DNA of 64,000 nt. Source: Candidatus Saccharimonadota bacterium. GTDB taxonomy: Bacteria > Patescibacteriota > Saccharimonadia > Saccharimonadales > Saccharimonadaceae. Within the stretch, counting starts at the first letter, position 1, and every line of letters begins with the position of its first letter. This document shows positions 2,929 through 52,583 of this stretch, in pieces. The stretch is taken from contig JAGAEN010000018.1 in the NCBI GenBank assembly GCA_017613135.1, positions 956 through 64,955 of the forward strand, given 5' to 3'. The translations under genes and the position numbers were made by a program. The notes beneath the pieces are model-generated. The model was not told the origin of the DNA, did no database searches, and saw only the letters and a list, made by a program, of their open reading frames with translations.

Positions 2929-4908
2929 TTAAAAGTCCAAATCATCAAGATCGACGCTGCCAGCGCGAGCTTGGATAAAGTTTTTACGTAATTCGGCTTG
3001 GTCGCCCATCAATTTAGCGAAAATCGCATCGGCTTTCTCGGCGTCTTCGATGTTTACACGGATAAGAATGCGGTTTTCTGGGTTCATCGTGGTTTCCCAG
3101 AGTTGAGAAGCATCCATTTCACCAAGACCTTTGAAGCGCTGCTGAGCAGTGTAACCGGCTTGCTTGAAACGCTCGGAATCTTCGTCAATCTTAGTACCAG
3201 AGGCTTTCCGCTCTTCGATTTTCTTGGTGAGGGTTTCTTCGAGGGCTTGTTCGTCATAAATATAGTCAATCTTACGGCCATTCCCTGTACCTTTAATCAG
3301 GCCAAATAGCGGTGGCTTGGCGAGATAGACGTGGCCAGCTTTAATAATGTCTGGCATATAGCGGAAAAAGAAAGTCAGAAGCAGAGTGGAAATATGCGAG
3401 CCATCGACATCGGCATCGGTCATAAAGACGATTTTATGATATCTGAGACCCTCAATATTAAACTGATCGCCAATACCAACGCCTAGACCTTTAATCAGAG
3501 AAACTAGCTCAGCGTTGGCAAGCATTTTATCTAATCTGGCACGCTCGGTATTTAAAACTTTACCACGAAGCGGTAAGATGGCCTGAATACGAGAATCGCG
3601 GCCTTCCTTAGCAGAACCAGCAGCGGAGTTACCCTCCACGATGAAGAGTTCGCATTCTTCGGCATTTCTAGAAGAACAATCGGCGAGTTTTGATGGGAGA
3701 TTGAGACCTTCGAAGGCGCCCTTCCTGATGACATTATCACGGGCGGCGCGAGCGGCTTTTCTAGCGCGGGCCGCGAGCGTGGCTTTACCAACGATTTTTT
3801 TGGCGATGGCGGGGTTTTCTTCAAGATAGTAGCCGAAATATTCGGTCATTACTTTATCGACATAACCTCTGACTTCGGGGTTGCCAAGTTTGTTTTTGGT
3901 CTGGCCTTCAAATTGTGGGTCGGGGAGTTTTACAAGAATTACAGCAGTTAAACCTTCCTTAATATCATCGCCGGTAAGATTATCTTCTTTTTCTTTGAGT
4001 AGACCATTTTTCCTGGCGTAATCATTAATCGTACGATTAAGGCCAGTGCGGAAACCAACTACGTGCATACCGCCATCAGGAGTAAGGACATTATTGGCAA
4101 ATGGCTTCATAATTTCAGCAAAGGTATCGTTATACTGAAGGGCGATTTCTACACCGGTGTCACCAACTTGCTTTTCGACATAGAAGATATCATCTGATAA
4201 AACTTCCTTGCCATTGTTGAGGCGCTTAACATAGCTCTTGATGCCACCCTCAAAGTAGAACGATTCCCTGGCACCGGTGCGCTCATCATTTACAGTAATT
4301 AATATACCCTTGGTAAGATAGGCTTGATGGCGAGCATAACTTGAAACCCAATCGTAGTCAAAGGTGGTAGTTTCTTTGAAAATGGTAGGATCTGGATAGA
4401 AAGTAATAGAGGTACCGTGTTCTCTTGGAGAGCCTGAAGTGACTTTTAGCTCCATTGTAGGCTTACCAGTGTCAAATTCAATGTGGTGAGTCTTGCCGTC
4501 ACGATAAACTTCGGCAATCATCTTGCTAGAAAGTGCATTTACCACAGATGAACCGACGCCGTGAAGACCAGAAGAAACTTTATAGCCACCGTCGCCGAAT
4601 TTACCACCGGCGTGAAGGACGGTAAGTACCGTCTCGAGAGTGGATTTCTTAGTCTTGGGGTGAATGTCTACTGGGATACCACGACCATTGTCGTCGACCC
4701 GTACTCCACCATCATTTAATATAGTGATATCGATTTTGTTGGCATAGCCAGCAATCGCTTCATCAATAGAGTTATCGGCAATTTCTTTGATTAGGTGATG
4801 TAGCCCATCGTAACCGGTAGAACCGATATACATACCCGGCCTTAAACGCACTGGTTCAAGACCTTCAAGTACCCGAATCTCAGATGAATCATAGGCTTCT
4901 TTGGCCAT
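2929..4908 (-). CDS. gyrB: DNA gyrase subunit B
   Basis: 659 aa. GHKL ATPase motifs (LEGLEPVRLRPGMYIG, GLHHL), TOPRIM EGNSAG, and PLRGK. Confidence 0.97.
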   Translation of the reverse strand: MAKEAYDSSEIRVLEGLEPVRLRPGMYIGSTGYDGLHHLIKEIADNSIDEAIAGYANKIDITILNDGGVRVDDNGRGIPVDIHPKTKKSTLETVLTVLHAGGKFGDGGYKVSSGLHGVGSSVVNALSSKMIAEVYRDGKTHHIEFDTGKPTMELKVTSGSPREHGTSITFYPDPTIFKETTTFDYDWVSSYARHQAYLTKGILITVNDERTGARESFYFEGGIKSYVKRLNNGKEVLSDDIFYVEKQVGDTGVEIALQYNDTFAEIMKPFANNVLTPDGGMHVVGFRTGLNRTINDYARKNGLLKEKEDNLTGDDIKEGLTAVILVKLPDPQFEGQTKNKLGNPEVRGYVDKVMTEYFGYYLEENPAIAKKIVGKATLAARARKAARAARDNVIRKGAFEGLNLPSKLADCSSRNAEECELFIVEGNSAAGSAKEGRDSRIQAILPLRGKVLNTERARLDKMLANAELVSLIKGLGVGIGDQFNIEGLRYHKIVFMTDADVDGSHISTLLLTFFFRYMPDIIKAGHVYLAKPPLFGLIKGTGNGRKIDYIYDEQALEETLTKKIEERKASGTKIDEDSERFKQAGYTAQQRFKGLGEMDASQLWETTMNPENRILIRVNIEDAEKADAIFAKLMGDQAELRKNFIQARAGSVDLDDLDF

Positions 4909-8369: not shown

Positions 8370-9070
8370 TAACTGGTTTAATCCCCCAAGTATTTTTGGA
8401 GGGAAGCGGGGGTTATCTGGCGCTATAATCACAACTATTGGCCACAACCTGGTCCGCTTTTCCCTTCTTTTGACCGCTTCACGCGAGGTGAAGCATTGAT
8501 CCTTGCTAGTTTTTTTCTTTCATTCTGGTTTATGCTATTTAGGAATGTACTAATGAAAGATTTACTAACGCGCTCTTAACGCTTTTCTAGCTTTCCTAAC
8601 GGAGTTAGTTTAGCTATTTTACTAGTTTTCACTAGCTTTGGCGGAGCTCTAGGTAATTCCTATTTGTAATTTATGGCTAGAAATTACCTTTTCGCCCGCC
8701 AAATTCTATGGTTTCTTTTGTTTTTTCATATTTTTAAGGTTTATTTTTAGTTTTTATTTTAGTCATCTCGACTGATTCCATATTAGCATAGACTTCTTAA
8801 AAATGCAAGAGGGTTGTTCAAATATTTTATTGTATTTTTTACAATGTGCTTCCCTGTTTCTCTCTGTTCTATTTTTTTGTTCGTTTTGTTGTGATTTTTA
8901 CAACGGTTGGCAGGGTTTTGTTGCCGTGGTCGACTATTTTGCTTCGCAAAAAGTCGTCCATAGTCAGGCGTTTTAAATAAAGGATGATAAAAACAGCAAT
9001 GCTGTTTTAGTTTAGGCTGGGCCTCTCCCAGAATAAATATATTTATTCTGGTCGAGCCTAGGCCTAAACT

Positions 9071-9098
9071 AAAAATAAGCCTAACGGCTTATTTTTTA
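9071..9098. terminator. Bidirectional rho-independent terminator just 3' of tmRNA
   Basis: Stem aataagcc, loop taac, stem ggcttatt, flanked by A-run and T-run. Confidence 0.6.
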
Positions 9099-9128
9099 TC
9101 ATCTTTTATTTCCCTAAATCTTCTTCAA

Positions 9129-9483
9129 TGGTGGAGCTGCCGGATACTGCCTCCGGGTCCGAGTCATCACGTGAGCATAATTCTACATACATAGTTTCCT
9201 GTTTTGGTTTTGGCGTGTGCTACTAGCTGCAAGAAACGAAACTGGTAACTGCCGTGGCTAAATTTTCGTGCCGCTTTTCGCCGCTAAAACGGCCTTAATC
9301 CCGTTGTATGATAATTCGTGCGCTACGGAATCTCACGCGTGAACCAGCCTAGAATAAATTAGGCATAGGCTGGCATGTACATGACATGCGCAGTTTTTGT
9401 GTTTTTAGCACTTATTAATACTTACGGTATTTAATCGGTATGCCTTATGCTTGTTAATGATCCGTCTAAGCTTTGTCAGCCCC
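9129..9483 (-). ncRNA. ssrA: tmRNA (SsrA)
   Basis: The minus strand starts GGGGCTGACAAAGC and ends GCAGCTCCACCA. The acceptor stem GGGGCTG/CAGCTCC has the G3:U70 alanine identity pair. Internal reading frame is GCT AAA AAC ACA AAA ACT GCG CAT GTC ATG TAC ATG CCA GCC TAT GCC TAA (9409 to 9359). TGATATAAT promoter at 9494-9502. Confidence 0.85.
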
Positions 9484-17568: not shown

Positions 17569-18426
17569 TTAAAAATCATTAAATTTATTTATCACAAATG
17601 GATAAACTTGGTCGAGCGGAAGCCAAATAATATTTTTGTTGCGTTTGAACCAAGTGAGTTGACGCTTGGCGAGATGGTAATCTTCATAGAAACACTTCTC
17701 TTTGGCTTCTTCTTCAGTAAATTCGCCCTCGAGATATTTCCAGGCGTATTCGTAAATATCGCTTTTCATCGCTTGGCTTCCCCAACCGTAGGTTTTTACG
17801 AGTTTTTGAGTTTCATCATATAAATCATCTGAGAACATTTGGTCGATGCGCTTCTTTAATCTTTGACGCAAGATATCGGTAGGCCAATCTATGCCGATTA
17901 ATAAAAAATCACCTTTTATCTCTGTACGGTCTGAACAAGTTTTTTGTTCAATATCGCCGATTTTATGACCGGTGGGGCCCTTAAAATGGTAATCATAAAT
18001 TAACGCATCGATGTAAAGACCGGTGCCACCAACGATGATGGGGACTTTGCCGCGAGATTTAATGTCTTTAATTTTCTCCTCGGCGTAGGATTTCCAGTCG
18101 GCGACAGTGAAACGCTCGCCGGGCTTTACTAGGTCTATGCCGTAATGCGGGATACCTTGCTGTTCTTTCTTCGTGGGTTTGGCCGTGCCGATATCCATGC
18201 CTTCATAAATAGCGCGGGAGTCGGCCGAAATAATCTCGCCGTCGATGGCTTTTGCTATTTTGATGGAAACACCAGTTTTACCAGAGCCTGTAGGTCCCAG
18301 TATAACGATGGTGCTTGAAAAAGTACCTTCTCGGAACGCTCCCTCGCTCCCGTCGTTACGGGGCTCGGTCGCTCCGTGTTTGGCCCGTCGCCAAACATGC
18401 TCCTCGAAGGTGTCTTTTTCAAGCAC
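17569..18426 (-). CDS. miaA: tRNA dimethylallyltransferase with a repeat-encoded N-terminal extension
   Basis: GPTGSGKTG P-loop, SADSRAIYEGMDIGTAKP, and QLTWF. The GTG start overlaps the thrS stop. No alternative start lies between the inserted element and the P-loop. Confidence 0.85.
   Translation of the reverse strand: MLEKDTFEEHVWRRAKHGATEPRNDGSEGAFREGTFSSTIVILGPTGSGKTGVSIKIAKAIDGEIISADSRAIYEGMDIGTAKPTKKEQQGIPHYGIDLVKPGERFTVADWKSYAEEKIKDIKSRGKVPIIVGGTGLYIDALIYDYHFKGPTGHKIGDIEQKTCSDRTEIKGDFLLIGIDWPTDILRQRLKKRIDQMFSDDLYDETQKLVKTYGWGSQAMKSDIYEYAWKYLEGEFTEEEAKEKCFYEDYHLAKRQLTWFKRNKNIIWLPLDQVYPFVINKFNDF
18313..18424 (-). repeat. GC-rich hairpin element (family 1) translated in frame at the miaA 5' end
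   Basis: The core ctcgctcccgtcgttacggggctc... is homologous to the ileS copies. It is flanked by the inverted repeat gcttgaaaaagtaccttc / gaaggtgtctttttcaagc. Confidence 0.7.
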
Positions 18427-20177
18427 TACAAGCCTCTTAGATAGTCGGCGAGGGCGGAGAGTTTGATTTTTTCTTCTTTATCGCGAAGACGGAGAGAGAC
18501 GATTCCCTCTTCGACATCTTTCGGGCCGACAATGATAAGAACTGGGATTTTGAGGTCGGTGGCGCGTTTGATTTTCTTGCCAAGAGAATCGGCTGAGTCA
18601 TCTACAGTGAAGCGGAGTTCGTTGTATTTAAGTGGTTTGTCGAGTACGATGCCGCTTAGAGTGTCAGTAATTTTTTTGACATAATCAGAAACTTTGTCAT
18701 TTACGGTGACGATGCGAACTTGCTCTGGGGCGCACCAGAATGGGAACCAACCACCAGTGTGCTCAATAAAGACCGAAAGGAAGCGCTCAATGGAGCCGAG
18801 CGTAGCGTGGTGAATCATCACAGGGCGTTCTTTTTCGCCTTTTTCGTTAGTGAATTCGAGACCAAAGCGTTCCGGTTGGACAAAATCTAACTGAATAGTG
18901 GCAAGTTGATGCTCGCGACCGATGGCGTCTTCGGCCATAAAATCAATCTTCGGACCATAGAAGGCGGCCTCGCCTTCTTGTTCAAAATAATCTAGGCCAT
19001 TGTCGATAGCGGCTTGTTTGATTTGTTTTTGGGCCATTCCCCAAAGCTTCTTATCGCCGAGATATTTGTCTTCATCGGAACGGTAAGAGAGACGAGCACG
19101 GAGCTTCTGCATACCCATGGTAGTGTAAAGCTCTTTAACGATAGCGACTAGTCGCTTAACCTCATCTTTGATTTGATCTTTGCGGCAGAAAACATGCGAA
19201 TCATCTTGAGTGAGTGAGCGAACGCGCGAAAGACCGCCGAGCTCGCCAGTTTTCTCGTCGCGATAATCGGTAGTGGCTTCCATATAACGCACTGGCATCT
19301 CTTTATAAGTACGTGGGCGAGAAGCAAAAATCTGCGCATGGTGTGGACAGTTCATTGGTTTCATTGCAAAATCTTCACCATTAACTTGAGAATGGACCAT
19401 AAAGAGTTCGTCGCCGAATTTGGCATAGTGACCGGAAGTCTTATAAAGGTCGGTCTTGGTAATATGTGGGGTCCAAACTTTCTTAAACCCTTCACGGCCA
19501 CGTAAACTAAGCGAATAATTTGCCATTAATTCGCGGAGTTCTGTACCACGAGGAGTAAAGAGTGGCAAACCAGCACCAACCAAATCAGAGAAGCAGAAAA
19601 GATCTAGTTCTCTACCGAGTTTACGATGGTCGCGAGCTTTGGCTTCTTCTTGACGCTTCAAATATTCGTCCAACTCTTCCTGTGTATCAAAGGCAACACC
19701 GTAGATGCGAGTAAGCATTTCTCTTTTTTCATCACCACGCCAATAGGCGCCGGCAACGCGGATGAGTTTAAAGGCACCAACCTCACCGGTGTTTTTAACG
19801 TGAGGGCCTTTACATAAATCAGTAAAGACATCACCTAAATCGTAAAATGAAATCTCGGCGCTCTCTGGTAAATCTTCAATTAACTCAACCTTGTATTTCT
19901 GGCTGTGGTCGCGAGCCCAGTTTAAAGCGTCCATTTTGGACACGACGCGCTTTTCCATTGGAAGCTTACGGGCGATAATACCACGCATTTTCTTCTCAAT
20001 TTTCGGCAAATCTGCATCAGAAATCTTGGCGTCGCCGAAGTCAATATCATAATAGAAGCCATTGTCAATAGCTGGGCCGATACCGAATGTGGCTGTAGGA
20101 TAAAGCTCCTGTACCGCAGCAGCGAGTACGTGACTTAAAGTGTGCCTCATTTTTTCGAGATTTTCCTCTTTTTTCAT
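18426..20177 (-). CDS. thrS: Threonyl-tRNA synthetase (no N-terminal TGS domain)
   Basis: 583 aa. Editing motifs HTLSHVLA and CKGPH, plus class II core motifs. Confidence 0.95.
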   Translation of the reverse strand: MKKEENLEKMRHTLSHVLAAAVQELYPTATFGIGPAIDNGFYYDIDFGDAKISDADLPKIEKKMRGIIARKLPMEKRVVSKMDALNWARDHSQKYKVELIEDLPESAEISFYDLGDVFTDLCKGPHVKNTGEVGAFKLIRVAGAYWRGDEKREMLTRIYGVAFDTQEELDEYLKRQEEAKARDHRKLGRELDLFCFSDLVGAGLPLFTPRGTELRELMANYSLSLRGREGFKKVWTPHITKTDLYKTSGHYAKFGDELFMVHSQVNGEDFAMKPMNCPHHAQIFASRPRTYKEMPVRYMEATTDYRDEKTGELGGLSRVRSLTQDDSHVFCRKDQIKDEVKRLVAIVKELYTTMGMQKLRARLSYRSDEDKYLGDKKLWGMAQKQIKQAAIDNGLDYFEQEGEAAFYGPKIDFMAEDAIGREHQLATIQLDFVQPERFGLEFTNEKGEKERPVMIHHATLGSIERFLSVFIEHTGGWFPFWCAPEQVRIVTVNDKVSDYVKKITDTLSGIVLDKPLKYNELRFTVDDSADSLGKKIKRATDLKIPVLIIVGPKDVEEGIVSLRLRDKEEKIKLSALADYLRGL

Positions 20178-20239
20178 CTTTATCCTTTCTTTATCGTACT
20201 ATTATACCACACTTGATTATTTTCGGCGGGTCCTGTCAT

Positions 20240-20355
20240 AAACCCAAAAAATTCGTTTCTCGACGCGCTCACGCCGGCCCGTCGTTACGGGCGGCGCTTC
20301 GCTCACTTCGCTCCCGTTGTCGCTCAAAGGTCTCGAAATAAATATTTTTGGGTTT
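20240..20355. repeat. GC-rich hairpin element (family 1), intergenic copy overlapping the stop of the AEC transporter gene
   Basis: The core gccggcccgtcgttacgggcggcgcttcgctcacttcgctcccgttgtcgc is flanked by aaacccaaaaa / tttttgggttt. Confidence 0.65.
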
Positions 20356-21280
20356 AAACCAGTAAAAGCAGCACCATTAAAGGTAGCGTTGCGACGGAGA
20401 AAATGGTCGAAATGGTGACGAGCTCGGAAGATTCGGCGGCGTTGCCACCGTATTTGACGGCAAAAAGTCCAAGCGAAGTAGCGGTAGGAAGAGCCTGGAT
20501 GAGAGTGCAGACCTCAATGACTTCGATTGGAAATTGGAGCAAAGTGAGAATGCCCCACGTGACGAGCGGACCAAGAGTGAGTTGGATAAGCGCCGTGAGC
20601 ATTAAACGCCATTTTTTGAATACATTTTTTAACTTAGCTTGTGACAACATAAAGCCAATGCAAATAATCGAGAGTGGAGTAGTGGCGCCGCCGATATAAC
20701 CTACTGCATCTGTTAAAAAGCTCGGCAGCTTAATGCCGATAAGAAATAAAATCATACCTAAAATCACGGCGATGATATTAGGATTAAAAATAATGTTTAG
20801 TAATAGTTTTATGGAAATTTTTTGTTCAAAGAGCCAAATGCCATAAGAAAATAGTGCGATATTAAACGCGATAATGAACCCACAGTAGGCCAAAATGCCG
20901 CTCGCACCAAAAGTATTAGCCACAATGGGATAGCCGAGAAAAGTGGCATTATTAAAAATCATTGCGAATTGGGCTTCATCAGACAATTCCTTTTTCATCC
21001 ATTTTTTATTAAAAATAAGTTTAGCGAGAATAATTAGCACAAACATAATGAGAGTGCCAGCAAGGAGGCCGGAGAAAAACAAATTGGCGGAGTCCTGATT
21101 ATACTCTGAGGGGAAAGCCATAAAAAGTGAGGCTGGCATAAAGACCGTGAGGAGAAGGTTGGTAATTTGTTTGTTGGTGTGTTCGCTGATGATTTTGAAT
21201 TTACCAAGCAAAAACCCGAGCGTCATAATTAGCGCGATGGATCCAAGGCGAGCATAAAAGACAGAAAGTTCTATCTGCAT
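20354..21280 (-). CDS. AEC (auxin efflux carrier) family permease
   Basis: 308 aa, about 10 TM helices, typical AEC layout. Confidence 0.7.
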   Translation of the reverse strand: MQIELSVFYARLGSIALIMTLGFLLGKFKIISEHTNKQITNLLLTVFMPASLFMAFPSEYNQDSANLFFSGLLAGTLIMFVLIILAKLIFNKKWMKKELSDEAQFAMIFNNATFLGYPIVANTFGASGILAYCGFIIAFNIALFSYGIWLFEQKISIKLLLNIIFNPNIIAVILGMILFLIGIKLPSFLTDAVGYIGGATTPLSIICIGFMLSQAKLKNVFKKWRLMLTALIQLTLGPLVTWGILTLLQFPIEVIEVCTLIQALPTATSLGLFAVKYGGNAAESSELVTISTIFSVATLPLMVLLLLV

Positions 21281-30499: not shown

Positions 30500-31831
30500 T
30501 TAAGATTTGGGAAGACTACCTTGGTCGCCGCCAGAAACTTTGTTTTCGACGGACTTTAAGGTCTTCCTGGTACGATAGTAATAGAAGCCACCACCACAAA
30601 TACCAAGAATTATAATGATAGCGAGTGTTATTTCGACGGGGCCGGTGGTGACGATTTCTTCAGGAGTTTCGGGCTCGGGTTCTGGTTCTGGCTCCGGTTC
30701 GGGCTCGGGTTCTGGTTCTGGCTCTGGTTCGGGCTCGGTGGTAGGATCGCATTTTACAGTGACACTAGCATTGTCTTCTCTTAATAAATTAGAATTAAAT
30801 TTGGCAGTAATGGTGTTTTTTAGGGTTTTATCACAGTAGCTCGTGTCAGTTGATACTTTAGATTGATAAACTATTTGGATAAGAGCACCAGCGGCAGCAT
30901 CGCCTGTATTGTAGCCACTTAAATCCAATATGTCATCTATAACTTTTCCATTGACGTTATTGACATCGAAAACTTTGGTGCTACCAGATTTAAGACTGAG
31001 CCCATTGTCGTGGGTATCTTTGAAAATAACATTGGTCAATTTAGTATTGCCAGTGTTATTAAACTTCACTTTATAGGTAACATAGTCGCCTGGTTTTACA
31101 GTCACATTTTTGGACCAATTCACGCCATCGGTCGAAACCATTTTTTCAAGTGAGGCATCGGTTTTTTCAGCAACGAGAGTGTAAGTAATATAACCAGAGT
31201 ATTCTGCACAGCCTGGAATAGTGCCGGCTAGTTTATTGTAGCCAATCGGCGTACCATCTTTGGTGAAGAGCGCGGACGGAAGAACAGAACCGTTAGCTTT
31301 ACCACCATTATGAATAATAGCGGTACCGGTTTTGTACCTTAACGTGACATTATTAGATTTGGTAGTAACATAGGCTTCATCCCACACGGTGCCAGTATTC
31401 ACGCTATCATCACTTGGTTTTACATAGCTCCAAGAAATGATACCAGAAACCATACCTCGCTCTCCCGCAGAGATGGTAGTCGGATAGGCCGATGAAAGCT
31501 TGGTGTTAGTAGCTATGCCATAGCCGGTAGCATTGGTGCTGGAAGAGGCGTCATTATGGTAATAAATATATACTTCATATTCCTTACCAGGGACTATCTC
31601 TATCTCATCTGTGTATGGAGCGGTGGAGTCGGCTTCGCCAATCCTGACGAAGTTGCGTTCGTCGCCTACTGCAGCATTATTAGTGATTGAGTTGAAGGTT
31701 GCATAAGTAGCGGGTGATTCATTGGTATAGGTTGGGCGTTCGGGACCCCAAGCTGAAGTTGAGCTGACTATGCAACATGTCGAGAGAACCGTCAGCATTG
31801 CTACTATTGTTTTTGTAAGAATCTTTTTCAT
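30500..31831 (-). CDS. Secreted, C-terminally anchored surface protein with DUF11-like repeat domain and (PE)n linker
   Basis: Signal peptide MKKILTKTIVAMLTVLSTCC after AAAGGAAG. GDYVTYKVKFNNTGNTKLTNV is DUF11-like. A PEPEPE linker precedes a TM helix. Confidence 0.65.
   Translation of the reverse strand: MKKILTKTIVAMLTVLSTCCIVSSTSAWGPERPTYTNESPATYATFNSITNNAAVGDERNFVRIGEADSTAPYTDEIEIVPGKEYEVYIYYHNDASSSTNATGYGIATNTKLSSAYPTTISAGERGMVSGIISWSYVKPSDDSVNTGTVWDEAYVTTKSNNVTLRYKTGTAIIHNGGKANGSVLPSALFTKDGTPIGYNKLAGTIPGCAEYSGYITYTLVAEKTDASLEKMVSTDGVNWSKNVTVKPGDYVTYKVKFNNTGNTKLTNVIFKDTHDNGLSLKSGSTKVFDVNNVNGKVIDDILDLSGYNTGDAAAGALIQIVYQSKVSTDTSYCDKTLKNTITAKFNSNLLREDNASVTVKCDPTTEPEPEPEPEPEPEPEPEPEPEPETPEEIVTTGPVEITLAIIIILGICGGGFYYYRTRKTLKSVENKVSGGDQGSLPKS
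30671..30738 (-). repeat. Tandem 30-nt (6-nt sub-period) repeat encoding (EP)n
   Basis: gggctcgggttctggttctggctc[c/t]ggttc, about 2.3 copies. Confidence 0.8.
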
Positions 31832-31847: not shown

Positions 31848-33563
31848 TTAATAATCCATCCCCGCTCTTTCACTGGCTGAAGCGCCGGCGTTTCCAGCAG
31901 ATTCTGCGGCGTTAGCGGCAGCTTCTTCATCGGCTCTTCTTTGTGCCTCTTGTCTGGCGGCTTCTTCAGCTTGACGCTGACGTTCAGCTTCCTCGGCGGC
32001 AGCTTGTTCTCTAGCAGCCTGTTCGGCGGCTTGACGAGCGGCCTCCTCGGCTTTACGTTGGCGTTCAGCTTCCTCGGCGGCAGCTTTTTCTTCAGCTTCT
32101 TTTCTAGCAGCTTCCTCGGCAGCGCGACGAGCTTCTGCTTCCGCAGCAGCTTGGCGCTCGGCTTCTTCTTGCTCTCTTCTTATCCTTTCGGCTTCTTGTC
32201 TTCTAGCTTCATCTTCTTGTCTTTGTCGCTCCATATCATCGAAATTGGCTTGGTCTTCTTCTTGTTTTGTCGGCGGAGTTACGCTTTCGTCAAGCCCAGT
32301 CGGATTAACGCGTGGTCCGGCGTGCTCAGTTTCCTGACTTGGATCTTTGGTAGCTAGTGGAGTTGGGGTTGGAGTTGGGGTTTCTGGGGTTGGAGTTGGG
32401 GTTTCTGGGGTTGGAGTTGGGGTTTCTGGGGTTGGAGTTGGGGTTTCTGGGGTTGGAGTTTTTTTGCCGCGACGCAAAACTTCTAAACCTCCGATATGGC
32501 CATTTACCTCACCCTTCTCATTAGCAGAAGTGCGACGAATATTAACTAGCATCGAGCCAGTTTCCATACCATCTTTGTCTACCCAGTAAAATTCGACGAC
32601 CTCAACACCTGGGCCAATTCCTCTGTCAACGAGTTGCATATTTTCGTGTACTACTGCCCCATTTTTGTCTTTGAGTAACATGCCGTAGTGATGATAATCA
32701 TACTTGGTAATTGTGGTACGGGTGAGGGCCTCATCTAATGCATGCATTGCCTGAGCTTTAACTTCTTCATATTCATCAGGGCTGAGAGCTTCTAATTTTT
32801 TCTCGATGGCACGAGGCTTTAGTCCATAAAAACCTTCTGGGCATAAGTCTTTCGGAAACTCAGCCATATAATCGGCGAGGCTTTCTACTTGATTATCAGC
32901 AGTGTATTTGAGCATTTCTACTTCATCGTGGTCGCATACTTCGCTGACTTCTTTGGCATCACCATAATCATAGTCATGGTCCTTGTTCTTAGACAACCAG
33001 AGCCCTGGCTTATCATAGCCATCTTTGATGCCTTTCTCTGTTTCGGCAGTTTCTGTAATAGACGGGCGCTCTTCTTGGCCCACTTGTCCGATTCTATTAT
33101 TGAACCCGTCGGTGGCAATGCCAACTCCAATTAGCCCAGCTAGCGCAATAGTTGTTACTCCTATTATGACGCTGCGGAAAGATGAATTGTTTTTGGCTTT
33201 TTTCTTGACGTATTCAATTTTTGCCCTACGTGGAGCTTCTGGAGAATTGTTTTCATCGACGTTTTCGTCGACGTCTTCTTCGACGTCTTCCGATTCGTCA
33301 GTTTGTGGCGATTCTTCTAGCTTTGAATTCGGATTATTGTATTTATTTTCTTCGCTTTGTATGGCGGAAAGTCTTCGAAGAATTGCTATTTCCTCTTCGA
33401 TTTTGGCTCTTTTGGCCAACAGTAATTCTCTCTCTTTCATGAGAGCATCTCTTTTTGCAACGTCAAGAGTCATGCTTCCACGCTCTTTTGATATGTCACG
33501 CGATAACTCTTTGTTAGAATCCAACTCTACTTGATTGACAAATTCTGGGTTAGGCATTTTCAC
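31848..33563 (-). CDS. Membrane-anchored protein with TPTPETP repeats and long Ala/Glu/Arg/Gln-rich (TolA-like) C-terminus
   Basis: 571 aa. N-terminal coiled coil, TM helix IIGVTTIALAGLIGVGIA, a central globular region, and low-complexity tails. Confidence 0.6.
   Translation of the reverse strand: MKMPNPEFVNQVELDSNKELSRDISKERGSMTLDVAKRDALMKERELLLAKRAKIEEEIAILRRLSAIQSEENKYNNPNSKLEESPQTDESEDVEEDVDENVDENNSPEAPRRAKIEYVKKKAKNNSSFRSVIIGVTTIALAGLIGVGIATDGFNNRIGQVGQEERPSITETAETEKGIKDGYDKPGLWLSKNKDHDYDYGDAKEVSEVCDHDEVEMLKYTADNQVESLADYMAEFPKDLCPEGFYGLKPRAIEKKLEALSPDEYEEVKAQAMHALDEALTRTTITKYDYHHYGMLLKDKNGAVVHENMQLVDRGIGPGVEVVEFYWVDKDGMETGSMLVNIRRTSANEKGEVNGHIGGLEVLRRGKKTPTPETPTPTPETPTPTPETPTPTPETPTPTPTPLATKDPSQETEHAGPRVNPTGLDESVTPPTKQEEDQANFDDMERQRQEDEARRQEAERIRREQEEAERQAAAEAEARRAAEEAARKEAEEKAAAEEAERQRKAEEAARQAAEQAAREQAAAEEAERQRQAEEAARQEAQRRADEEAAANAAESAGNAGASASERAGMDY
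32359..32460 (-). repeat. Tandem 21-nt repeat (about 4.8 copies) encoding TPETPTP
   Basis: ggagttggggtttctggggtt repeated head to tail. Confidence 0.85.
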
Positions 33564-34557: not shown

Positions 34558-37500
34558 TTATATTTTCTCTAGTGAAATGGTGATGTTAGTACCGGAGACT
34601 TTGGCGATTTCGTCGTGGGCGTAGTTCATGTCTTTTTCGAAGGAGTCGGCGAGGACTTCAGATTTGATGAGCTCTTCAAAGCCTTCTGGCAAGTCAATAG
34701 AGAGCGAGAGCTTGATGCGGTCGTCCATACTTAGTTTGGCGTTTTTACGAGCGGATTGGATGGCGCGGATGAGATCGCGGGCGTAGCCTTCCCTTTTCAG
34801 TTCTTCGGTAAGGGTTTTGTCGAGAATAAAGGTGTCGCCTCGTTCAACTTTTTTGACGTTTACTTCGTCGGCAATGATTTGCTCGTAGAATGGGTCGAGT
34901 TTATCGCCAGTGTAGGTGAGCTTTGAAAGAGGTTGGCGGACTTTGATTTGCTCTTCAGTGTCAGACTTCTGCATTCTAAGGGCTAGAGCATCCGTGATGA
35001 TTTGGCGGGTGCGAGACATATTATCTAGCACTTTTTCATCGATTGGGCCAGCCTCAGGCCAGGTTGTAAGATGAATGGACTCGTTTTTGCCAGTCATTTT
35101 CTGATACAATTCTTCGGAAAGGAAGGGGGTAAAGGGAGCAAGGAGTTTCGCAGTATATATTAATACATGGTATAGTGTAGCAAAGGCGCTGGTTTTGTCC
35201 TTTTGGTCGTCGGTTTTAGAGAAACGACGGCGAGAGCGGCGGACGAACCAGTTGGAGAGATCATCAACAAATGGTAAGACGGGTTCGAGAACGGCGGGAA
35301 GGTTATAGGCGTTCATGTTCTCGGTGATAGCGTTTCTTAACTCGCAGGCACGGGAGATGATCCAGACATCCAATGGATTTGGAAGAATGTTTTTTCGGGA
35401 CGCTTCGTCGCGCCCGTCGTCACGGGGCTCCTCGCTTCGTGTGCTCCCGTCGTCGCACATGCCCCTAAAAAACACTTCTTCCAAATCCTTAGAATCGATG
35501 CCTTCAATCTCAGCATAGGTGGTGAAGAAGTCGTAGACGTTCCAGAGCATGGCGAGTTTACGGTTGACATCGGAAACGTCCTTATCCAGGAGAGCGAAAT
35601 CTTCGCCAGAGAGGACGGGACTGGAAAGCAGCAAGAAACGAAGGGCGTCGGCGGAGTACTGGTCCATCAAGATATTCGGGTCGGTATAATTGCCGAGAGA
35701 TTTGCTCATTTTGCGACCATCGTTCCCTGCTAGGGTACCGGTGGTAATGACGTTCTTGTAGGCATTTTTGTGGCCGTTTTTGGCTTTTTCGCCAAAGGCG
35801 CCGTTTTCAGCAAGAGCGGTATTTACAGCGTGGACATAGTAGAACCAAGCGCGGACCTGGCCGACGTATTCTACGATGAAATCAGCGGGATAATTACGCT
35901 CAAACTTCTCTTTGTTTTCGAATGGGTAGTGTAACTGAGCGAACGGCATAGAGCCGGATTCAAACCAGCAGTCGAGGACCTTTTCAATACGGGTGAAATG
36001 CTCACCGTCGATATCAAAGGTAATGGCATCGACCCATGGGCGGTGGTAGTCTTCAAGTTTTTGACCGGAAAGTTCATAAAGTTCTTCGTAGGAACCGATG
36101 ACCTTGATACTACCTTTGTCGCCCTTCCAGACTGGCATAGCGGTGGCCCAGAAACGGTCGCGGGAAAGGTTCCAGTCAGGGGCCTGTTCAATGTTTTTGG
36201 CGAAACGGCCGTGTTTTAAGTATTCTGGGAACCAGTTGATGTTTTCGTTTTCGGCTAGCATCAGAGGTTTTTGGCTCTCGATATCGAAGAACCAAGATGG
36301 GAAAGCGCGATACATAATGCGCTCTTTAGAGCGGGGGTTAAATGGGTATTCGTGCTGAATATAATCTATTTTATAGATAATTCCCTTTTCTTCGAGGCAT
36401 TTGGCGATGAATTTGTTGGCGGCCCAAATCTGAATACCGTGTTCGTCGGTGTCGCGGACGCCAAGGGCGTGGAGTTTGTCGGCGTATTCAGGCAAATAGT
36501 AGCCGTTTTCGTCGAGGGTGTCGACAAAAGCAATTTCGCCTTCGTGTTGTTTGAATAATTCATAGTCATCTTCGCCATAGGCAGGTGCAATATGGACGAT
36601 GCCGGTGCCTTCTTCGTCACCGACGAAGTCGGCGGTGAAAACTTGGCAGACAGTGCCATCTAGGGATTCGTATTTTAGGCCGGCGAGATCGGAGCCTTCG
36701 AAAGAGCGCTCCGGCTTCATATCGTTGAACAATTTTTTTGCAAGTTTTTCAGCAACAATTAATTTTTCGCCATCCACGTCATAGACGCCGTAGTGTAAAT
36801 CTTTGCTCACGGCGAGAGCACGGTTCGCCATTAAGGTCCAGGGCGTAGTGGTCCAGGCTAGGAATGCAAATTCAGAAATAGGTCTTTTTCGGGACGCTTC
36901 GTCGCGCCCGTCGTTACGGGGCTCCTTGCTTCGTGTGCTCCCGTCGTCGCACATGCCCCTCAAAAGACTTTTTTCTGAATTTGCTACCAATTTGAATTTT
37001 ACGTAGGCGCTGGGGTCGGTGACGGTCTGGTAGGCGTCATTGTCCATGGTGACTTCGGCTTTTGATACTGGGGTAGCGAATTTGGTATCATACATTAAGA
37101 CCTTGCGGCCTTCGTAAATTTTGCCAGCTTCATAGAGTTTCTTGAAGGCCCACCAGACAGATTCCATAAAATCTTTGTTCATGGTGCGGTAGCAGTTATC
37201 AAAATCCACCCAACGGCCGATGCGGTCGATGGTGGAGTGCCAGGTTTCGGAATTCGCGACCATAGATTCGCGAGCCTTGATGATATAGTCCTCGAGCGAC
37301 CATTTGGTGCCGATGTCGCGACGATCGGTGATGCCGAGCTGCTTTTCGACAAAATTCTCGGCGGGAAGACCGTGGCAATCCCACCCCCAACGTCTCTCGA
37401 CGCGGTAGCCGTTCATGGTATAGTAACGCGGAACAGCATCTTTGACGATACTAGAAAGCAGAGTGCCGTGGTGGGGCATACCAGTAATAAACGGAGGACC

Positions 37501-37733: not shown

Positions 37734-39731
37734 TTACTGCGCTATACAGCGGACGCTAAACCCGAGGTTCTTAGTGAAGCTGTTAGTACCTGGGCTGACG
37801 CTGCTACTGTCCAAGTTCAGAGTGTAAGCGTAGAGGTTGCTGTTCACCGAGCTAGACCAGTAGTAGCCGCGTGAGCCGCGATTGTAGGCGGACGAGCCAT
37901 TGAAGTAGCCGGAATAGACAACGTTAGTAGGATAAGCTCTTAATACTTTGGAAGCGGTAGCTCCTAAGTCTACGTTGTCTACGATACCTTGGTAATATCC
38001 ATAGCCATTAGTGTTGTTTGTATTTGGTTCTGTGCCACCCATAAGGGTCTTAGTAAGTACGTAGAAGTCACCTGTGGTATTAACAGTAGTTTGGCCACCT
38101 ATTGGTAAACGCCAGCCAGTAGGACAAATGGAAGTGGTGGTGACGGAAGTGTTATTTTGGCCATAATATGCAGTGTCAGCAATAGCAGCTGGCCAGGTAT
38201 AGTAGTTGCCATAGCCGTACCATCTAACGTGATTATTATTTGCGTTGTAGCTGTCTGTGAGAGTGGTAGTGTTATCTGAGTTAGTAGCATTAGTAGCCAT
38301 ATTGGTATTGTTTTTGTTGTATCTTGGCATACGGTAGCCTGGGTAGTAGTTACTATTACTATTTATATTGATAGTACCGTTACTGCCATCAATACTATAA
38401 AGGGAGTTGGCAGTAGTATTGCTAGTGAAGTTCGCATCTTCTGAATTAGCTAAGCCGATGAATTTGCCGAGATTACCTTGGGTGGCATTAGTGGCATCAC
38501 CATAGCCTTGGGCTTTAGCAATGTTTTCTGCTCCTACGGAGTTTTCTGAGTTTAGTCTTAAGTTTTCTGTCATCCAGCATTTACCATCAGCTAGTCTAGC
38601 TACTGTATAGACATTACCATCACGAGTATCAGTAAGGGCAGTCATAGAAGCGAGAGTGGCTCTAGTACCATCACTTGGAGCGGTGGTGAGCGAAGAACAG
38701 CCAGTCCAACCTTGGTTATTGGTACCTTGGAGATTACCAGTAGATGCTACCCAGACTGGGTAAAGAATCATACCCTTTGTAGCAAGAGTAGTAGAAGGTA
38801 CTGTGAGAGTTTCATTTGGACCGTAGATAGTACTGGCATTTGTAGCAGTGAAATCTGTACTCCAACCCGCGAAGCCATATCCTTCACGCTTGTAGTTTGG
38901 TGCGATAAGGTTAATGGTGGTGGCGGAAGTGCCTACACTAATCTTTCCAGCAGTAGGTGAAGAAGAAATAGAGCCGAGTGAAGACATGGAACCTTCTATG
39001 TCTGATGCGTTAGGTGCATAACAGACATAGCCAGCTGGACAATCCGAAGCTTTAAGTGGAGTAACTGGTTTACCAGCAGTAGATGGGTGAACTAGAGTGT
39101 ATTTAACTTGTCCAATGTATGTTCCAGCCGGTTGAGTCTGTGATATGTAAGCTCTATAGGTAGTAGTAAGGTTAGAACCAGAAGCACCAGAACCTATATC
39201 AGTAGAAGATGGGAAGTAGGCTACTTTGGTGTATTCATTTGGAACTTCTGTATATCCTGAGAAATCTGGATCACCTGTTTGTTTATTGGTATCGTCAGTA
39301 GAGCCAGCAATGATAGGAAGATAAGTAGAGCCAGTATTAGCTAGTTTCATAGCCCAGGATGATGTACCAGTAGTTATAGTGGTTGAAGTAATAATATCGT
39401 GAGTGGAACCAAGAGTTGTACTAGTTAGTTTATTATTACCATATTCATCATTAGTATATCCAATAGCATATAGTGCATAGCCAGTATTATCATTACATGT
39501 TACTTTGATATTAGTAGTACCTATTTCATTTTCTGTACTACCATTCTGAATAGTCTTATTATGTGAAGTCATACCAGAAGAAGATAGTGAACAGGATACT
39601 GGAACATCAATAGAAATGACATCAACAAAGCCATCGTCTGCTAATACGGAAGGGAGAGTGAGCAAGGCAGTAGAGAGTGTAGTGATAGTAATAAGACTAC
39701 CTGCGATTACTTTATTGCGTTCTATGCGCAT
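37734..39731 (-). CDS. Secreted surface protein: shared N-terminal module + Listeria-Bacteroides-type repeat + C-terminal Fibrobacter succinogenes major paralogous (FISUMP) domain
   Basis: Signal peptide present. GYGFAGWS...LYPVWV repeat. DTRDGNVYTVARLADGKCWMTENLRL, CPTGWRLP, YYWSSS, and FSVRCI. Confidence 0.75.
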   Translation of the reverse strand: MRIERNKVIAGSLITITTLSTALLTLPSVLADDGFVDVISIDVPVSCSLSSSGMTSHNKTIQNGSTENEIGTTNIKVTCNDNTGYALYAIGYTNDEYGNNKLTSTTLGSTHDIITSTTITTGTSSWAMKLANTGSTYLPIIAGSTDDTNKQTGDPDFSGYTEVPNEYTKVAYFPSSTDIGSGASGSNLTTTYRAYISQTQPAGTYIGQVKYTLVHPSTAGKPVTPLKASDCPAGYVCYAPNASDIEGSMSSLGSISSSPTAGKISVGTSATTINLIAPNYKREGYGFAGWSTDFTATNASTIYGPNETLTVPSTTLATKGMILYPVWVASTGNLQGTNNQGWTGCSSLTTAPSDGTRATLASMTALTDTRDGNVYTVARLADGKCWMTENLRLNSENSVGAENIAKAQGYGDATNATQGNLGKFIGLANSEDANFTSNTTANSLYSIDGSNGTININSNSNYYPGYRMPRYNKNNTNMATNATNSDNTTTLTDSYNANNNHVRWYGYGNYYTWPAAIADTAYYGQNNTSVTTTSICPTGWRLPIGGQTTVNTTGDFYVLTKTLMGGTEPNTNNTNGYGYYQGIVDNVDLGATASKVLRAYPTNVVYSGYFNGSSAYNRGSRGYYWSSSVNSNLYAYTLNLDSSSVSPGTNSFTKNLGFSVRCIAQ
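39084..39662 (-). repeat. About 580-bp module ~90% identical to 48176-48754 (N-terminal domain of two paralogs)
   Basis: Hand alignment of a 60-nt sample gave 55/60 identical. The proteins are collinear from LTLP to LVHP. Confidence 0.8.
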
Positions 39732-42442: not shown

Positions 42443-44176
42443 TTATTTACTTGGATGATAAACTGTGCCAGCAAACCAGATTTCGCCAGTAGATTTGTCG
42501 CGAATGATGAAGAAGAACGGTTTATTGAAGGTGATGTCGATTTTTTCAACGGGAACTTCCCACTCATAGTCAAAACTAAACGCAGCGCCAAGACCTCCGG
42601 AAACTACTGTAGCGGCTGCGGCCTTAATACCATCATTTGAAAAATCGATATTTGCTTTGTGGAGCGCGTCTTGAATGTATGAATGAGCAATAGTCGTTAA
42701 TCTGGATAAATCGGCAATTTCTGGGTCAAACACGTCGGTAACGCCTAGATTCATAAGATCTTCCTTTAATTTGAGGTTGTAGTCGAAATTAAAGAATGGA
42801 ATATAGCCTTCGATTTGCGTAATAACGCCATCTTTATAATTGTCTACGACGGAAGCGTCTTTGATGCCATTGATGAGGCTAGAGAGATTTTCAACCGTCA
42901 TAGCATTTACATAAGTGTTTAGGTTTTCGTTTTTTGGCATAATGCCTACATATTGCAAGGTGGAATCATCGTATGTTTTCAAGTCTTTAGCGAAAACTTT
43001 TTCGTCATCGTTATCAGAAAAATAGAAATCTGTAGAGATATGAGTCTTGCCATAATTGCTACTAAGCTCCTCCATATACTCATCGATGTCGAAATCATCA
43101 TCTTCTCCATTTTTATTTTTCCATTCTTCATAAGCAGCTAGGACAGTAGAGCGAATTTGTTCCTCCCCAAGTTCTTCAATGATATTGTAGCGGTTGACAC
43201 TGGCACCAATTTCGGCAGCTTCGACTTCTTCATCTTCAAAATTCATTTTGTCAAATTGCTCGCCAACATAATTAATCCAATGGGAGTATTTTTCGTGGGC
43301 AAACCTTGCCCAGTAAAATATACAAGAGACTTTTGTGGTAGCACTTGTACACTGTAGTTGATTATTCCAATCCATATCGATAGCAAGAGCATTAATCAGC
43401 ATAAAGTCCGTATCTTCTCGCAAAACATCATCGCTTAGCATATTCTTAATAATATTCATCGTCTTATCGGCAATCCATTGGTTAATTGGAGCAACACTGG
43501 TAAAAGCATCGTAAACGACACTGGCGTTGTATTTTTGTTGGAGCGTAGTCGTATAGGAGGATAATATTTCATCTTTGACTCTTTCACGAATAAACATGGC
43601 ATTGGCAAAAGAACGATTGGTATTATTGGTGTAAGCTTTAGGGGTGTAATTGCCAATCAAATTAGTGATTTGGGTTTTTGACTTGCCATCGGCGGCATCA
43701 GACAACATTGCAAGAGCGTATTTAATGGAAATTGGACTATAGACAATGTTGTCTGCTTTATCTTGTAGACGTAGGAACGTCAAATCAAAATCGCTCATTG
43801 CGCTGAGGTCGTAGTTTTGATTTTGATTTGAACTATTATCATCGTCAGAAGGTTGGCCACCTTGGTTGAATGGGAAAAATTTGGCAAAAGCAAAACCGCC
43901 AGCAACGACCAAAGCGATAAGAATAACGATGGCAGAAATAATTAGTGGCTTGCTGTTTTTGGGCTTAGGTGGCTCGGGAACTGAGTCAGGAGTGGAAGTA
44001 GGTTCGGTAGATGGAGCTGGTGTTGGAGTGATAGTTGGTTCGGGTATAGGGGTAGGTTCTGGGACTGGGGTTGGCTCTGGAGTTGGGGTTGGCTCTGGAG
44101 TTGGGGTTGGCTCTGGAGTTGGGGCGAGGGCAGGCTCCGTATTTGGGTTAATATTATTATTTAAGGATGGATCCAT
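42443..44176 (-). CDS. Membrane-anchored serpin (serine protease inhibitor family)
   Basis: N-terminal (TPEP)n region and a TM helix. The serpin core begins NIVYSPISIKYALAMLSDAADGKSKTQI and ends FNKPFFFIIRDKSTGEIWFAGTVYHP. Confidence 0.75.
   Translation of the reverse strand: MDPSLNNNINPNTEPALAPTPEPTPTPEPTPTPEPTPVPEPTPIPEPTITPTPAPSTEPTSTPDSVPEPPKPKNSKPLIISAIVILIALVVAGGFAFAKFFPFNQGGQPSDDDNSSNQNQNYDLSAMSDFDLTFLRLQDKADNIVYSPISIKYALAMLSDAADGKSKTQITNLIGNYTPKAYTNNTNRSFANAMFIRERVKDEILSSYTTTLQQKYNASVVYDAFTSVAPINQWIADKTMNIIKNMLSDDVLREDTDFMLINALAIDMDWNNQLQCTSATTKVSCIFYWARFAHEKYSHWINYVGEQFDKMNFEDEEVEAAEIGASVNRYNIIEELGEEQIRSTVLAAYEEWKNKNGEDDDFDIDEYMEELSSNYGKTHISTDFYFSDNDDEKVFAKDLKTYDDSTLQYVGIMPKNENLNTYVNAMTVENLSSLINGIKDASVVDNYKDGVITQIEGYIPFFNFDYNLKLKEDLMNLGVTDVFDPEIADLSRLTTIAHSYIQDALHKANIDFSNDGIKAAAATVVSGGLGAAFSFDYEWEVPVEKIDITFNKPFFFIIRDKSTGEIWFAGTVYHPSK
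44067..44124 (-). repeat. Tandem 18-nt repeat encoding PTPEPT units
   Basis: ggggttggctctggagtt, about 3.2 copies. Confidence 0.8.
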
Positions 44177-51738: not shown

Positions 51739-52583
51739 TCTTGGCTCCTTTTTTGGCAGTGTGGGCAGAGATGAGTGCCACGACCGGCGACTTTGATTTT
51801 AATAAGTTTAGTGCCACAATGCGGGCAAGGTTGGCCTTCTCTTCTAAAAACGTTGGCAAATAATTCTAAATAGTCGCCGGTCGTGCCGTCGGCCTTGACG
51901 TAGGTCGCCATAGTGGAGCCGCCAGAAGCGATGGATTTTTCCATTACGTCTTTTGCATTTTTAATGATGAGTGCGGCTTCATTTCTAGTGATAGTACCAC
52001 ATTTTCGCTCGGGATGAATGTGACTCAAGAAAAGTGCTTCATCGGCATAAATATTACCGAGACCACAAATGATGGTCTGGTCTAAAATGGTCGGCTTGAT
52101 GCAGGAATTTTTATGGTGCTGTAATTTTTCATATAGTTCATCTACTGTAATGGTCCAAGGCTCGGGGGCGAGTTTTTTAATAAAGGCGTCGCTCTCCACT
52201 TCTTTTGTGGGAAGAGCCTTGATAAAGCCAAATTTGCGCTGGTCATTAAAATAAAGGGTGCCGTCGTCAAATTCTAGTATAACTCTGGTCTGTTTGTTGG
52301 GGAGTTTGGCAGTAAAATTGTCGCTCGGGTGGCCGGCGGCATAACGCTCCTTGCCGTCATAGATCAGCTGGCCAGTCATGCGAAGGTGAATCATTAAGGA
52401 ATTATGGTTATCTAGGTCAATTATTAAGGCTTTGCCGAAGCGGCGAATATCTTTCACTGTGCCAGTAACTGGCGCACCAATAAAAGATTTGTCACACAAA
52501 ATCGTGGTCTTTACCAATTTCTTTTTTACAATAAATTGGCTAAGACCACGTCTGATTGTTTCTACCTCTGGTAACTCTGGCAT
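51735..52583 (-). CDS. mutM: Formamidopyrimidine-DNA glycosylase
   Basis: MPELPEVE N-terminus and a C-terminal zinc finger CPHCGTKL...CPHCQ. Confidence 0.92.
   Translation of the reverse strand: MPELPEVETIRRGLSQFIVKKKLVKTTILCDKSFIGAPVTGTVKDIRRFGKALIIDLDNHNSLMIHLRMTGQLIYDGKERYAAGHPSDNFTAKLPNKQTRVILEFDDGTLYFNDQRKFGFIKALPTKEVESDAFIKKLAPEPWTITVDELYEKLQHHKNSCIKPTILDQTIICGLGNIYADEALFLSHIHPERKCGTITRNEAALIIKNAKDVMEKSIASGGSTMATYVKADGTTGDYLELFANVFRREGQPCPHCGTKLIKIKVAGRGTHLCPHCQKRSQE

Follow-up and report, generated by a model that had tools for sequence, protein, structure and literature searches.

A palindromic repeat as the probable translated N-terminus of MiaA in Candidatus Saccharibacteria

In a 64,000-nucleotide stretch of contig JAGAEN010000018.1 from a Candidatus Saccharimonadota bacterium (hereinafter, the window), the gene for the tRNA-modifying enzyme MiaA begins inside a palindromic element that lies at the junction with the upstream gene, thrS. 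The explanation that we favor, with a probability of about 75% and on the strength of sequence comparison, is that this element is a translated palindromic repeat, similar to the Rickettsia palindromic elements (RPEs), that makes up the N-terminus of MiaA. The element belongs to a family of 105–140-nt palindromic repeats of Candidatus Saccharibacteria that have a conserved three-way-junction core of ~75 nt, flanked by complementary A/T-rich arms of ~20 nt specific to each insertion site. The copies reside mostly in housekeeping genes, are free of stop codons in five of the six frames and, under this explanation, would be transcribed and translated together with the host gene, adding ~35–45 residues at tolerant surface positions.

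In the case of miaA, the insert would have replaced the original start region. Translation would start from the GTG in the 5' arm (UAGUG, with the Shine–Dalgarno (SD) sequence AAGAGG 6 nt upstream) and proceed through the arm, the core and the second arm, yielding a disordered N-terminal extension of 37 residues in front of the first strand and the P-loop. Because the GTG is enclosed in a 19-bp stem that the ribosome finishing thrS would melt, translational coupling of the two genes would be obligatory.

The element at the thrS–miaA junction

All coordinates refer to the window, and thrS, miaA, ileS and the four family copies detected there are all on the minus strand. The whole element (18311–18426, 116 nt) corresponds to codons 1–38 of the 285-codon miaA open reading frame (ORF) and matches the covariance model of the family with 105 bits (E = 2e-32). 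It consists of a 21-nt 5' arm, GTGCTTGAAAAAGACACCTTC (18406–18426), which holds the GTG of miaA, a GC-rich core of 75 nt (18331–18405) with the architecture of a three-way junction, and a 20-nt 3' arm, GAAGGTACTTTTTCAAGCAC (18311–18330), which encodes EGTFSS and is directly followed by TIVILGPTGSGKT; the arms pair over 19 bp with one bulge. The core includes a GA/GA internal loop with an inner stem behind it, a variable hairpin 1 and an invariant hairpin 2, CCCGUAACGACGGG. The sense-strand RNA accordingly folds into a Y shape, with the 19-bp outer stem, the GA/GA loop, the 5-bp inner stem, hairpin 1 and the longer hairpin 2, at a minimum free energy of -65.4 kcal/mol, compared with -32.5 ± 3.7 kcal/mol for shuffled sequences (z = -9.0; none of the 200 shuffles is as good). 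Among the peptide stretches encoded by the element are LEKDTFEEHVWR, HGATEPR and the N-terminal LEKDTFEEH. The inverted-repeat strings reported in the first-pass annotation of this DNA sit where they were placed, at 18313–18330 and 18406–18424 of the plus strand. The right arm, described there as abutting the GTG, is indeed adjacent to it, but the pairing of the arms extends 2 bp further than originally quoted (GTGC/GCAC), which places the start codon within the stem.

The two ORFs, thrS (18426–20177; Pfam domains taken from orthologues) and miaA (17569–18426; 285 aa including the 37-residue element-encoded extension; Pfam IPPT, E = 2.5e-52), overlap by a single base in the string UAGUG, common to the thrS stop codon TAG (18426–18428) and the miaA start codon GTG (18424–18426), as initially proposed. 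The SD-like AAGAGG (18433–18438) is located 6 nt 5' of the GTG, inside thrS at its 3' end. When a longer stretch is folded, the SD region AGAGGCTTGTAG (18433–18444) can pair with the P-loop coding sequence CTACAGGCTCT (18278–18288), lengthening the stem past the element. After the element, the miaA frame reads AGC ACC ATC GTT ATA CTG GGA CCT up to the P-loop, and the codons that follow the 3' arm, from this ACC through ACA GGC TCT GGT AAA ACT, encode TIVILGPTGSGKT. A reading of these codons bears out the earlier statement that no ATG, GTG or TTG separates the element from the P-loop, and no such codon is present in frame inside the element either. The start signals extend to relatives: AGAGG, AGGGG or AGGAA is found 6–8 nt 5' of a GTG overlapping or abutting the stop codon of thrS in three orthologues with the same insert (L048, L055 and L105) and in a scar allele (L003). 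The combination of a stop/start overlap or abutment with an SD sequence inside the upstream gene is that of a coupled gene pair, and this layout recurs in other classes of inserts.

The N-termini of MiaA were compared across the 120 closest MiaA clusters (71–100% identity over the aligned region). Approximately 37 of these have a short N-terminus, either M(Q/K)T(I/L)IILGPTGSGKT (MQTIIILGPTGSGKT) or one in which at most 11 residues precede the P-loop glycine; 26 have the same insert as the window (MLEKxxFEEH...ATEPRNDG...AFRExxFSS), and ~55 contain other extensions, of 14–57 residues, at the same spot. Thus, relatives that lack the repeat are short, rather than equally long as would speak against translation through the element. 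When five of the other classes were examined as DNA, all five turned out to be hairpins that directly follow a start codon overlapping or abutting the stop codon of thrS; four of them, in L126, L128, L129 and, in a shorter form, L127, are of the same superfamily and have differing arms, frames or core subtypes, and the hairpin of L001 is unrelated. None of the ~80 insert-bearing clusters retains a native ATG behind the insert, and the threonine of the native MQT is kept after every insert; in the virgin arrangement, represented by L005, the ATG lies within the last codons of thrS. Deletions at this site preserve the frame. L003 is a derivative of this very insert that has kept the outer arms and lost 87 nt (MPGKDTFSSTIVILG), and L125 has kept the 5' arm and 13 nt of the core and lost 93 nt, both in frame; furthermore, the indels within the insert (P0016 and P0114) consist of whole codons. 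These two alleles and L109, considered as candidate empty sites, are deletion scars rather than virgin sites.

Two observations on close relatives stand apart from this comparison. The closest relatives, L001 and L002, in which the rest of the MiaA protein is identical to that of the window and the flanking DNA matches on both sides, possess at the thrS–miaA junction (2975–3144, equivalent to 18311–18440 of the window) an unrelated hairpin of 72 nt (-62.5 kcal/mol, z = -7.8), together with a different thrS end and a 24-nt spacer; the swapped cassette begins ~5 codons before the end of thrS and reaches codon T39 of miaA, and no copy of this hairpin occurs in the window. The other case is L124 (P0008), a 1.3-kb metagenome contig, in which miaA is the same as in the window from about codon 70, the first ~60 codons are foreign, and there is neither an insert nor an upstream thrS; it represents a recombinant allele or else a chimeric assembly.

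In an AlphaFold2 model built from a 45-sequence alignment, the confidence score (predicted local distance difference test, pLDDT) is ~43 for residues 1–37 and 85–95 for the MiaA fold, the first strand of which begins at residue 39. The prediction for the extension is therefore a disordered tail on the margin of the P-loop domain, compatible with function. As for the stability of the hairpin relative to the start codon, the probability that the GUG is unpaired in free mRNA (201-nt context) is at most 0.02; when the stretch under a ribosome terminating at the UAG is held open, the outer stem is gone, at a cost of ~20 kcal/mol. Given that the GTG is ~98% paired in naked mRNA, synthesis of MiaA would be tied to translation of thrS, and initiation probably depends on a ribosome completing ThrRS. 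The earlier suggestion that the hairpin affects the coupling of the two genes is plausible in the light of this folding model.

The repeat family and its reading frames

The first-pass annotation assigned the miaA element to the same family as an element in ileS, and both the core motif and the covariance model corroborate this assignment. The core motif, CCCGTCGTTACGGGGCTC, occurs four times in the window with up to three mismatches, compared with an expectation of 0.00, and a covariance model derived from 98 members of the family recovers the four copies with 92–105 bits (E = 1e-28 to 1e-32); the best match elsewhere in the window reaches 14 bits. All four have the same orientation and the same Y fold (-45 to -65 kcal/mol, z = -5 to -9). 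The intergenic copy (20239–20356, 94.9 bits) is located upstream of thrS, begins at the stop codon with which the preceding membrane-protein gene ends and contains a TGA in the EPRNDG frame. The ileS gene contains two in-frame copies 1494 nt apart, copy C (~35375–35488, 92.5 bits; ...LEEVFFRGMCDDGSTRSEEPRDDGRDEASRKNILPN...) and copy D (~36866–36984, 93.3 bits), the latter just 5' of the WTTTPW motif of the editing domain. The three genic copies share orientation and frame, as claimed for the common peptide EPRNDG, but the peptide itself is EPRNDG in only two of them and EPRDDG in the third.

Across genomes, the census was obtained by an exact-pattern scan of one genome per species, which yielded at least 118 stretches, and all family-wide counts given here are among the matches listed. 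At least ~95 of these are full elements in Saccharibacteria/Nanosyncoccus genomes (the host of the window is placed in Candidatus Saccharibacteria by its MiaA homologues); the other matches represent chance similarity in a conserved gene of high-GC bacteria. A scan of viral contigs with the core pattern produced no match. The elements are 105–140 nt long, with complementary arms in every copy listed and a median stem of 22 bp. In the alignment of 98 sequences, 90.7% of the cells pair, compared with 69.7% after shuffling (none of 500 shuffles as high), and the covariation score is 0.534, against 0.11–0.13 when the partners are slid. Double changes are observed in all 13 pairs of the outer and inner stems, hairpin 1 covaries as well, and hairpin 2 is invariant in the 98 copies.

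The frames indicate that the repeat is read as coding sequence. Of the ~100 copies, 83 are located inside long ORFs (55 in the sense and 28 in the antisense orientation), and in 83 of 83 the host frame is kept on both sides. Relative to hairpin 2, the sense frames s2 (...EPRNDG...) and s0 (...PVTTG...) are used in 35 and 20 copies, respectively, and the three antisense frames in 8, 12 and 8; the sole unused frame, s1, contains a built-in stop, CCG-TAA or CCG-TGA. The copies outside ORFs are found at gene boundaries, often beginning at a stop codon, and none obviously splits a gene. In ileS, the inserts are flanked by conserved IleRS blocks, and insert-free versions exist for both sites (L082 for site D; L023 and L079 for site C). 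Such strict frame compatibility is predicted by translation through the element and not by excision of the RNA or ribosomal bypass. The proposal that MiaA is translated through the element is supported by the maintenance of frame together with the N-termini of the orthologues, the start signals and the in-frame deletions. The same core subfamily is read in two different frames (L028 versus L036); hence it is the DNA that is conserved, with the peptide being a passenger.

The core and the arms of the repeats differ sharply in conservation. The inner ~15 nt of the arms show only a weak consensus (...GAAAA...TTTC beside the GA loop), and the outer 6–10 nt are unrelated among copies yet paired. 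The conserved terminal inverted repeats typical of transposable elements of this size are absent: cores are 97–100% identical where arms are 55–77% identical. Copies C and D of the window have cores that are 97% identical and arms that are 59–64% identical; in comparison with the orthologous site of L085, the arms of copy C are 68–73% identical, whereas the core is only 75% identical. The three copies in L102 have 100% identical 73-nt cores and arms with 55–77% identity. Conversely, the same site in different species can hold differing core subtypes, frames or orientations between homologous arms, as at ileS site D (L079 versus L085) and in ArgRS (L007 versus L039). Judging from the sequences of the ileS copies and of L102, these patterns indicate gene conversion or replacement confined to the core. 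The simplest reading would be that the insertions are old, that their arms diverge and yet stay complementary via compensatory change or arm-to-arm conversion, and that the cores are homogenized and exchanged by gene conversion and at times inverted by inter-arm recombination.

An origin of the arms as an inverted duplication of the target was considered and rejected, its sole support being that GATTCAG, from the outer part of the 5' arm at ileS site D, is similar to GATTCTG in the insert-free L082. Degenerate arms combined with conversion of the core constitute a simpler account than target duplication because the arm consensus is weak and site-homologous arms enclose differing cores.

At the protein level, a profile of the element-encoded peptide retrieved only 14 tiny ORFs from a set of 5.8 billion proteins and 19 matches, mostly fragments, from 1.84 billion representatives, which often lack the insert and hence do not provide a census. 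Two of the hits of this profile, P0136 and P0141, are spurious ORFs over a high-GC CRISPR array, the repeat of which translates to ASTEPRHDGRGC; back-translation indicates that ~20 of 24 nt could match the hairpin-2 region, probably a chance resemblance of GC-rich hairpins. Comparison of the window with Rfam at gathering thresholds identified RNase P, tmRNA and tRNAs only, and in the permissive mode, the elements produced nothing beyond noise with E > 0.7. Searches of the literature retrieved no description of such elements in Saccharibacteria or in the candidate phyla radiation (CPR), absence from the searchable corpus being no proof of novelty; the family is apparently undescribed to date.

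The window contains other repeats, all distinct from this family. Inverted repeats at 3119–3230, 51779–51885, 55678–55801 and 57471–57628 were inspected and are not family members. The same applies to an AT-rich nested palindrome of 137 nt (8975–9111, -66.6 kcal/mol) in the intergenic region beside the tmRNA gene (9129–9483), which has 19-nt outer arms that are 95% complementary and a 35-nt inner palindrome (9005–9074). A 300-nt direct repeat (39084–39383 and 48176–48475, 85% identical) and an 83-nt family with three copies (at 38559, 47945 and 63352) lie within or close to large ORFs, one of which (37734–39731) encodes 665 aa; from their sequences, these look like paralogous surface-protein genes. 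Short tandem repeats with units of 12–21 nt (GGGGTTGGAGTT-type) are present at 30668–30739, 32343–32468 and 44034–44123.

Host genes and alternative explanations

The distribution of the family over host genes is strongly skewed. The intragenic copies occupy 78 distinct host ORFs, with orthologous insertions counted repeatedly, of which 51 (65%), representing 13 of the ~27 gene families, are involved in tRNA handling; the share expected from gene length is below 10%, a rough estimate rather than a computed value. These are IleRS/ValRS (16), ArgRS (6), MnmA (6), MiaA (5), LeuRS (4), TsaD (4), QueA (4), Dus (2) and TsaE/B, TrmD, TruB and Fmt (1 each). The others include P-type ATPase (7), RecX (6) and TatD (3), along with LigA, UvrB, PriA, PolA, DnaX, Obg, Der, LepA, a FemX-like protein and an aminotransferase, i.e. 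mostly replication and repair enzymes and GTPases; no genes for ribosomal proteins, RNA polymerase or central metabolism are found among the hosts of the ~80 members. Tolerance of insertions by large modular enzymes may contribute to this skew, which is recorded here as unexplained and not as evidence of function.

The skew is nevertheless part of the case for the alternative that comes closest, namely that the repeat is kept as a functional nucleic-acid module and is more than selfish DNA. It would be a structured element of the mRNA or DNA, common to genes for tRNA-handling and other nucleic-acid enzymes. The element would be expected to be translated in this case as well, and possible roles include a common site through which a protein, RNase III or a helicase co-regulates the host genes, or a device that couples thrS and miaA. 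Besides the prevalence of aminoacyl-tRNA synthetases and tRNA-modifying enzymes among the hosts, this possibility draws on the pairing that is kept by compensatory change across species-level divergence and on the invariance of hairpin 2; in addition, the genic copies in the window are all in ileS and miaA, the fourth copy flanks thrS, and some hairpin insert is present at the thrS–miaA junction in about two thirds of the relatives. However, the repeat occurs in both orientations in its hosts, so that the loop sequences in the mRNA differ. Nor are the G.U pairs of the arms biased toward the mRNA strand: the counts are 62 versus 61 in sense hosts, and in antisense hosts the trend runs opposite to expectation. 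Because of this lack of bias, RNA-specific selection on the arms is not supported. Moreover, many orthologues do well without the element, which can be deleted, and the enrichment counts include shared ancestry and the tolerance of large multidomain enzymes. Arm-to-arm gene conversion within the palindrome could maintain the pairing without selection. On balance, retention for function appears unlikely. A more elaborate version, which we regard as doubtful when its three parts are taken jointly, combines preferential retention in tRNA-handling genes for their common post-transcriptional control (through a site that binds a protein, is targeted by an RNase or responds to tRNA), a strict dependence of MiaA output on ThrRS translation, and a mobility or conversion mechanism, unlike classical transposition, behind the conserved core and variable arms.

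Another alternative holds that the element is an untranslated intercistronic hairpin, with MiaA starting past it at a non-canonical codon, ATC (codon 40), ATA or CTG, and the open upstream frame being incidental. The protein record for MiaA of the window (P0005) is in line with such a start: it has 246 aa, begins with MVILGPTG and spans 17569–18309, which implies initiation at the ATC and skips the element, and the insert-free orthologues are similar, at 247 aa. The AUC is also less tightly paired than the GUG, with an unpaired probability of 0.19–0.29. Against this stands the lack of an SD comparable to that of the GTG before the annotated ATC, the nearest candidate, GAAGG, being more than 15 nt away and within the stem, whereas the SD and the overlapping GTG are conserved. 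The ~80 insert-bearing clusters keep the frame open from the upstream start through very different inserts, and the two deletions at the site are multiples of three. Elsewhere, the family is internal to ORFs, as in ileS, where a restart is impossible. An initiation site past the element is therefore quite improbable, and the annotation of MiaA from the ATC is, by sequence comparison with the relatives, probably wrong.

Finally, removal or skipping of the element, by intron-like excision of the RNA at the base of the stem or by translational bypass (hopping), is extremely improbable: although the long terminal stem joins the two junctions and exact removal would yield a native-looking M + TIVILGPTGSGKT, frame and stops would not matter in that case, yet 83 of the 83 genic copies are in frame with the stop-containing frame unused, indels within inserts and deletions of inserts are multiples of three, no ribozyme or intron family is matched in Rfam, and introns of group I or group II are far larger than the element.

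Several observations weigh against the explanation preferred here, translation of a selfish repeat as the MiaA N-terminus. The strong tRNA-handling skew and the arms that are kept complementary are among them, the former not being predicted by a purely selfish model, and so is the start at codon 40 in the annotation of the genome itself. No target-site duplication was detected, the lengths of direct repeats beside the stems being the same as in the shuffled-pair null (given the age of the copies and their uncertain ends, duplications may have decayed); closely related strains yielded no virgin-versus-filled pair; and no transposase is linked to the family, no search for transposases having been made. 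A structure of -65 kcal/mol over the start codon could also make initiation inefficient. Nevertheless, translation from the GTG, coupled to thrS, of a repeat that would be selfish, i.e. non-adaptive, is the explanation that we prefer.

Significance and comparison with known systems

The miaA case is a clear example of a broader phenomenon that seems to have gone undescribed. Selfish DNA inside coding genes, known mainly from Rickettsia, would also exist on a large scale in the unrelated, ultra-small, host-dependent Saccharibacteria of the CPR. At least one annotation pipeline has trimmed MiaA to a non-canonical ATC, and similar inserts will distort start calls, family alignments and domain boundaries in the CPR. 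The copies further amount to dozens of experiments of nature on where at their surfaces aminoacyl-tRNA synthetases and tRNA-modifying enzymes tolerate 35–45 extra residues. The reversed pattern of conservation, in which the core is kept, the arms are site-specific and the cores are swapped, points to a mechanism of spreading other than classical cut-and-paste, and the tRNA-handling skew and the hairpin-locked miaA start lead to concrete hypotheses on regulation in little-known organisms.

Translational coupling at overlapping stop and start codons with a sequestered start is familiar from UGAUG and UAGUG operon junctions and from the RNA phage MS2. The thrS–miaA junction shares with these the one-base overlap, the SD within the upstream gene and the paired start that would be opened by the arriving upstream ribosome. 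In contrast to known coupled junctions, the sequestering structure in this case is a mobile-type repeat that would itself be translated, and coupling is what the layout and the fold suggest.

The MITEs of bacteria (miniature inverted-repeat transposable elements), such as Correia/NEMIS, ERIC, RUP, Coxiella QMITE and cyanobacterial Nezha, resemble this family in being small, non-autonomous and multi-copy, with inverted terminal arms, and in their ability to form in-frame fusions and RNA hairpins; the family also conforms to the size definition of a MITE (<300 bp, multi-copy, without coding capacity for a transposase). However, the terminal inverted repeats of classical MITEs are conserved and target-site duplications accompany them, whereas in this family conservation is lowest in the arms, no duplication is detectable and no parent insertion sequence is known. 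Repetitive extragenic palindromes (REPs) and the mosaic elements built from them (BIMEs), which are linked to RAYT transposases, are likewise GC-rich hairpins with many copies. The invariant hairpin, CCCGTAACGACGGG, has CGTC on the opposite strand and so recalls the CGTC-tagged REPs (PMC3733652). With REPs being 20–40 bp long and extragenic by definition, a family with 105–140-nt members that is 83% intragenic falls outside the REP/BIME class. Among organellar sequences, the coding palindromes of Nematomorpha mitochondrial genes (PMC6649704) and the GC clusters of yeast mitochondria (PMC4478555) are likewise translated, hairpin-forming inverted repeats within coding sequence, those of yeast being GC-rich palindromes on an AT-rich background; neither is known to have a common conserved core of this kind.

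The closest parallel is with the RPEs, palindromic repeats of ~150 bp, many of which are in frame in unrelated ORFs and are predicted to be compatible with the structures of the host proteins (PMC10969869, summarizing Ogata et al. 2000). Both families populate reduced genomes with short (~100–150 bp), multi-copy palindromes that sit in frame within unrelated housekeeping ORFs, where they add a peptide compatible with the fold and function of the protein; both also have intergenic copies and encode no transposase. The hosts differ, Rickettsia (Rickettsiales) in one case and Candidatus Saccharibacteria/Nanosyncoccus, a different phylum, in the other, which places the present family outside the RPEs; the likeness proposed here is one of behavior. 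The intragenic share is ~83% here, compared with roughly half for the RPEs (PMC10969869). Unlike the RPEs, the saccharibacterial repeats use five of the six frames and both orientations, and combine a conserved GC-rich core, exchanged between sites, with arms that vary from site to site.

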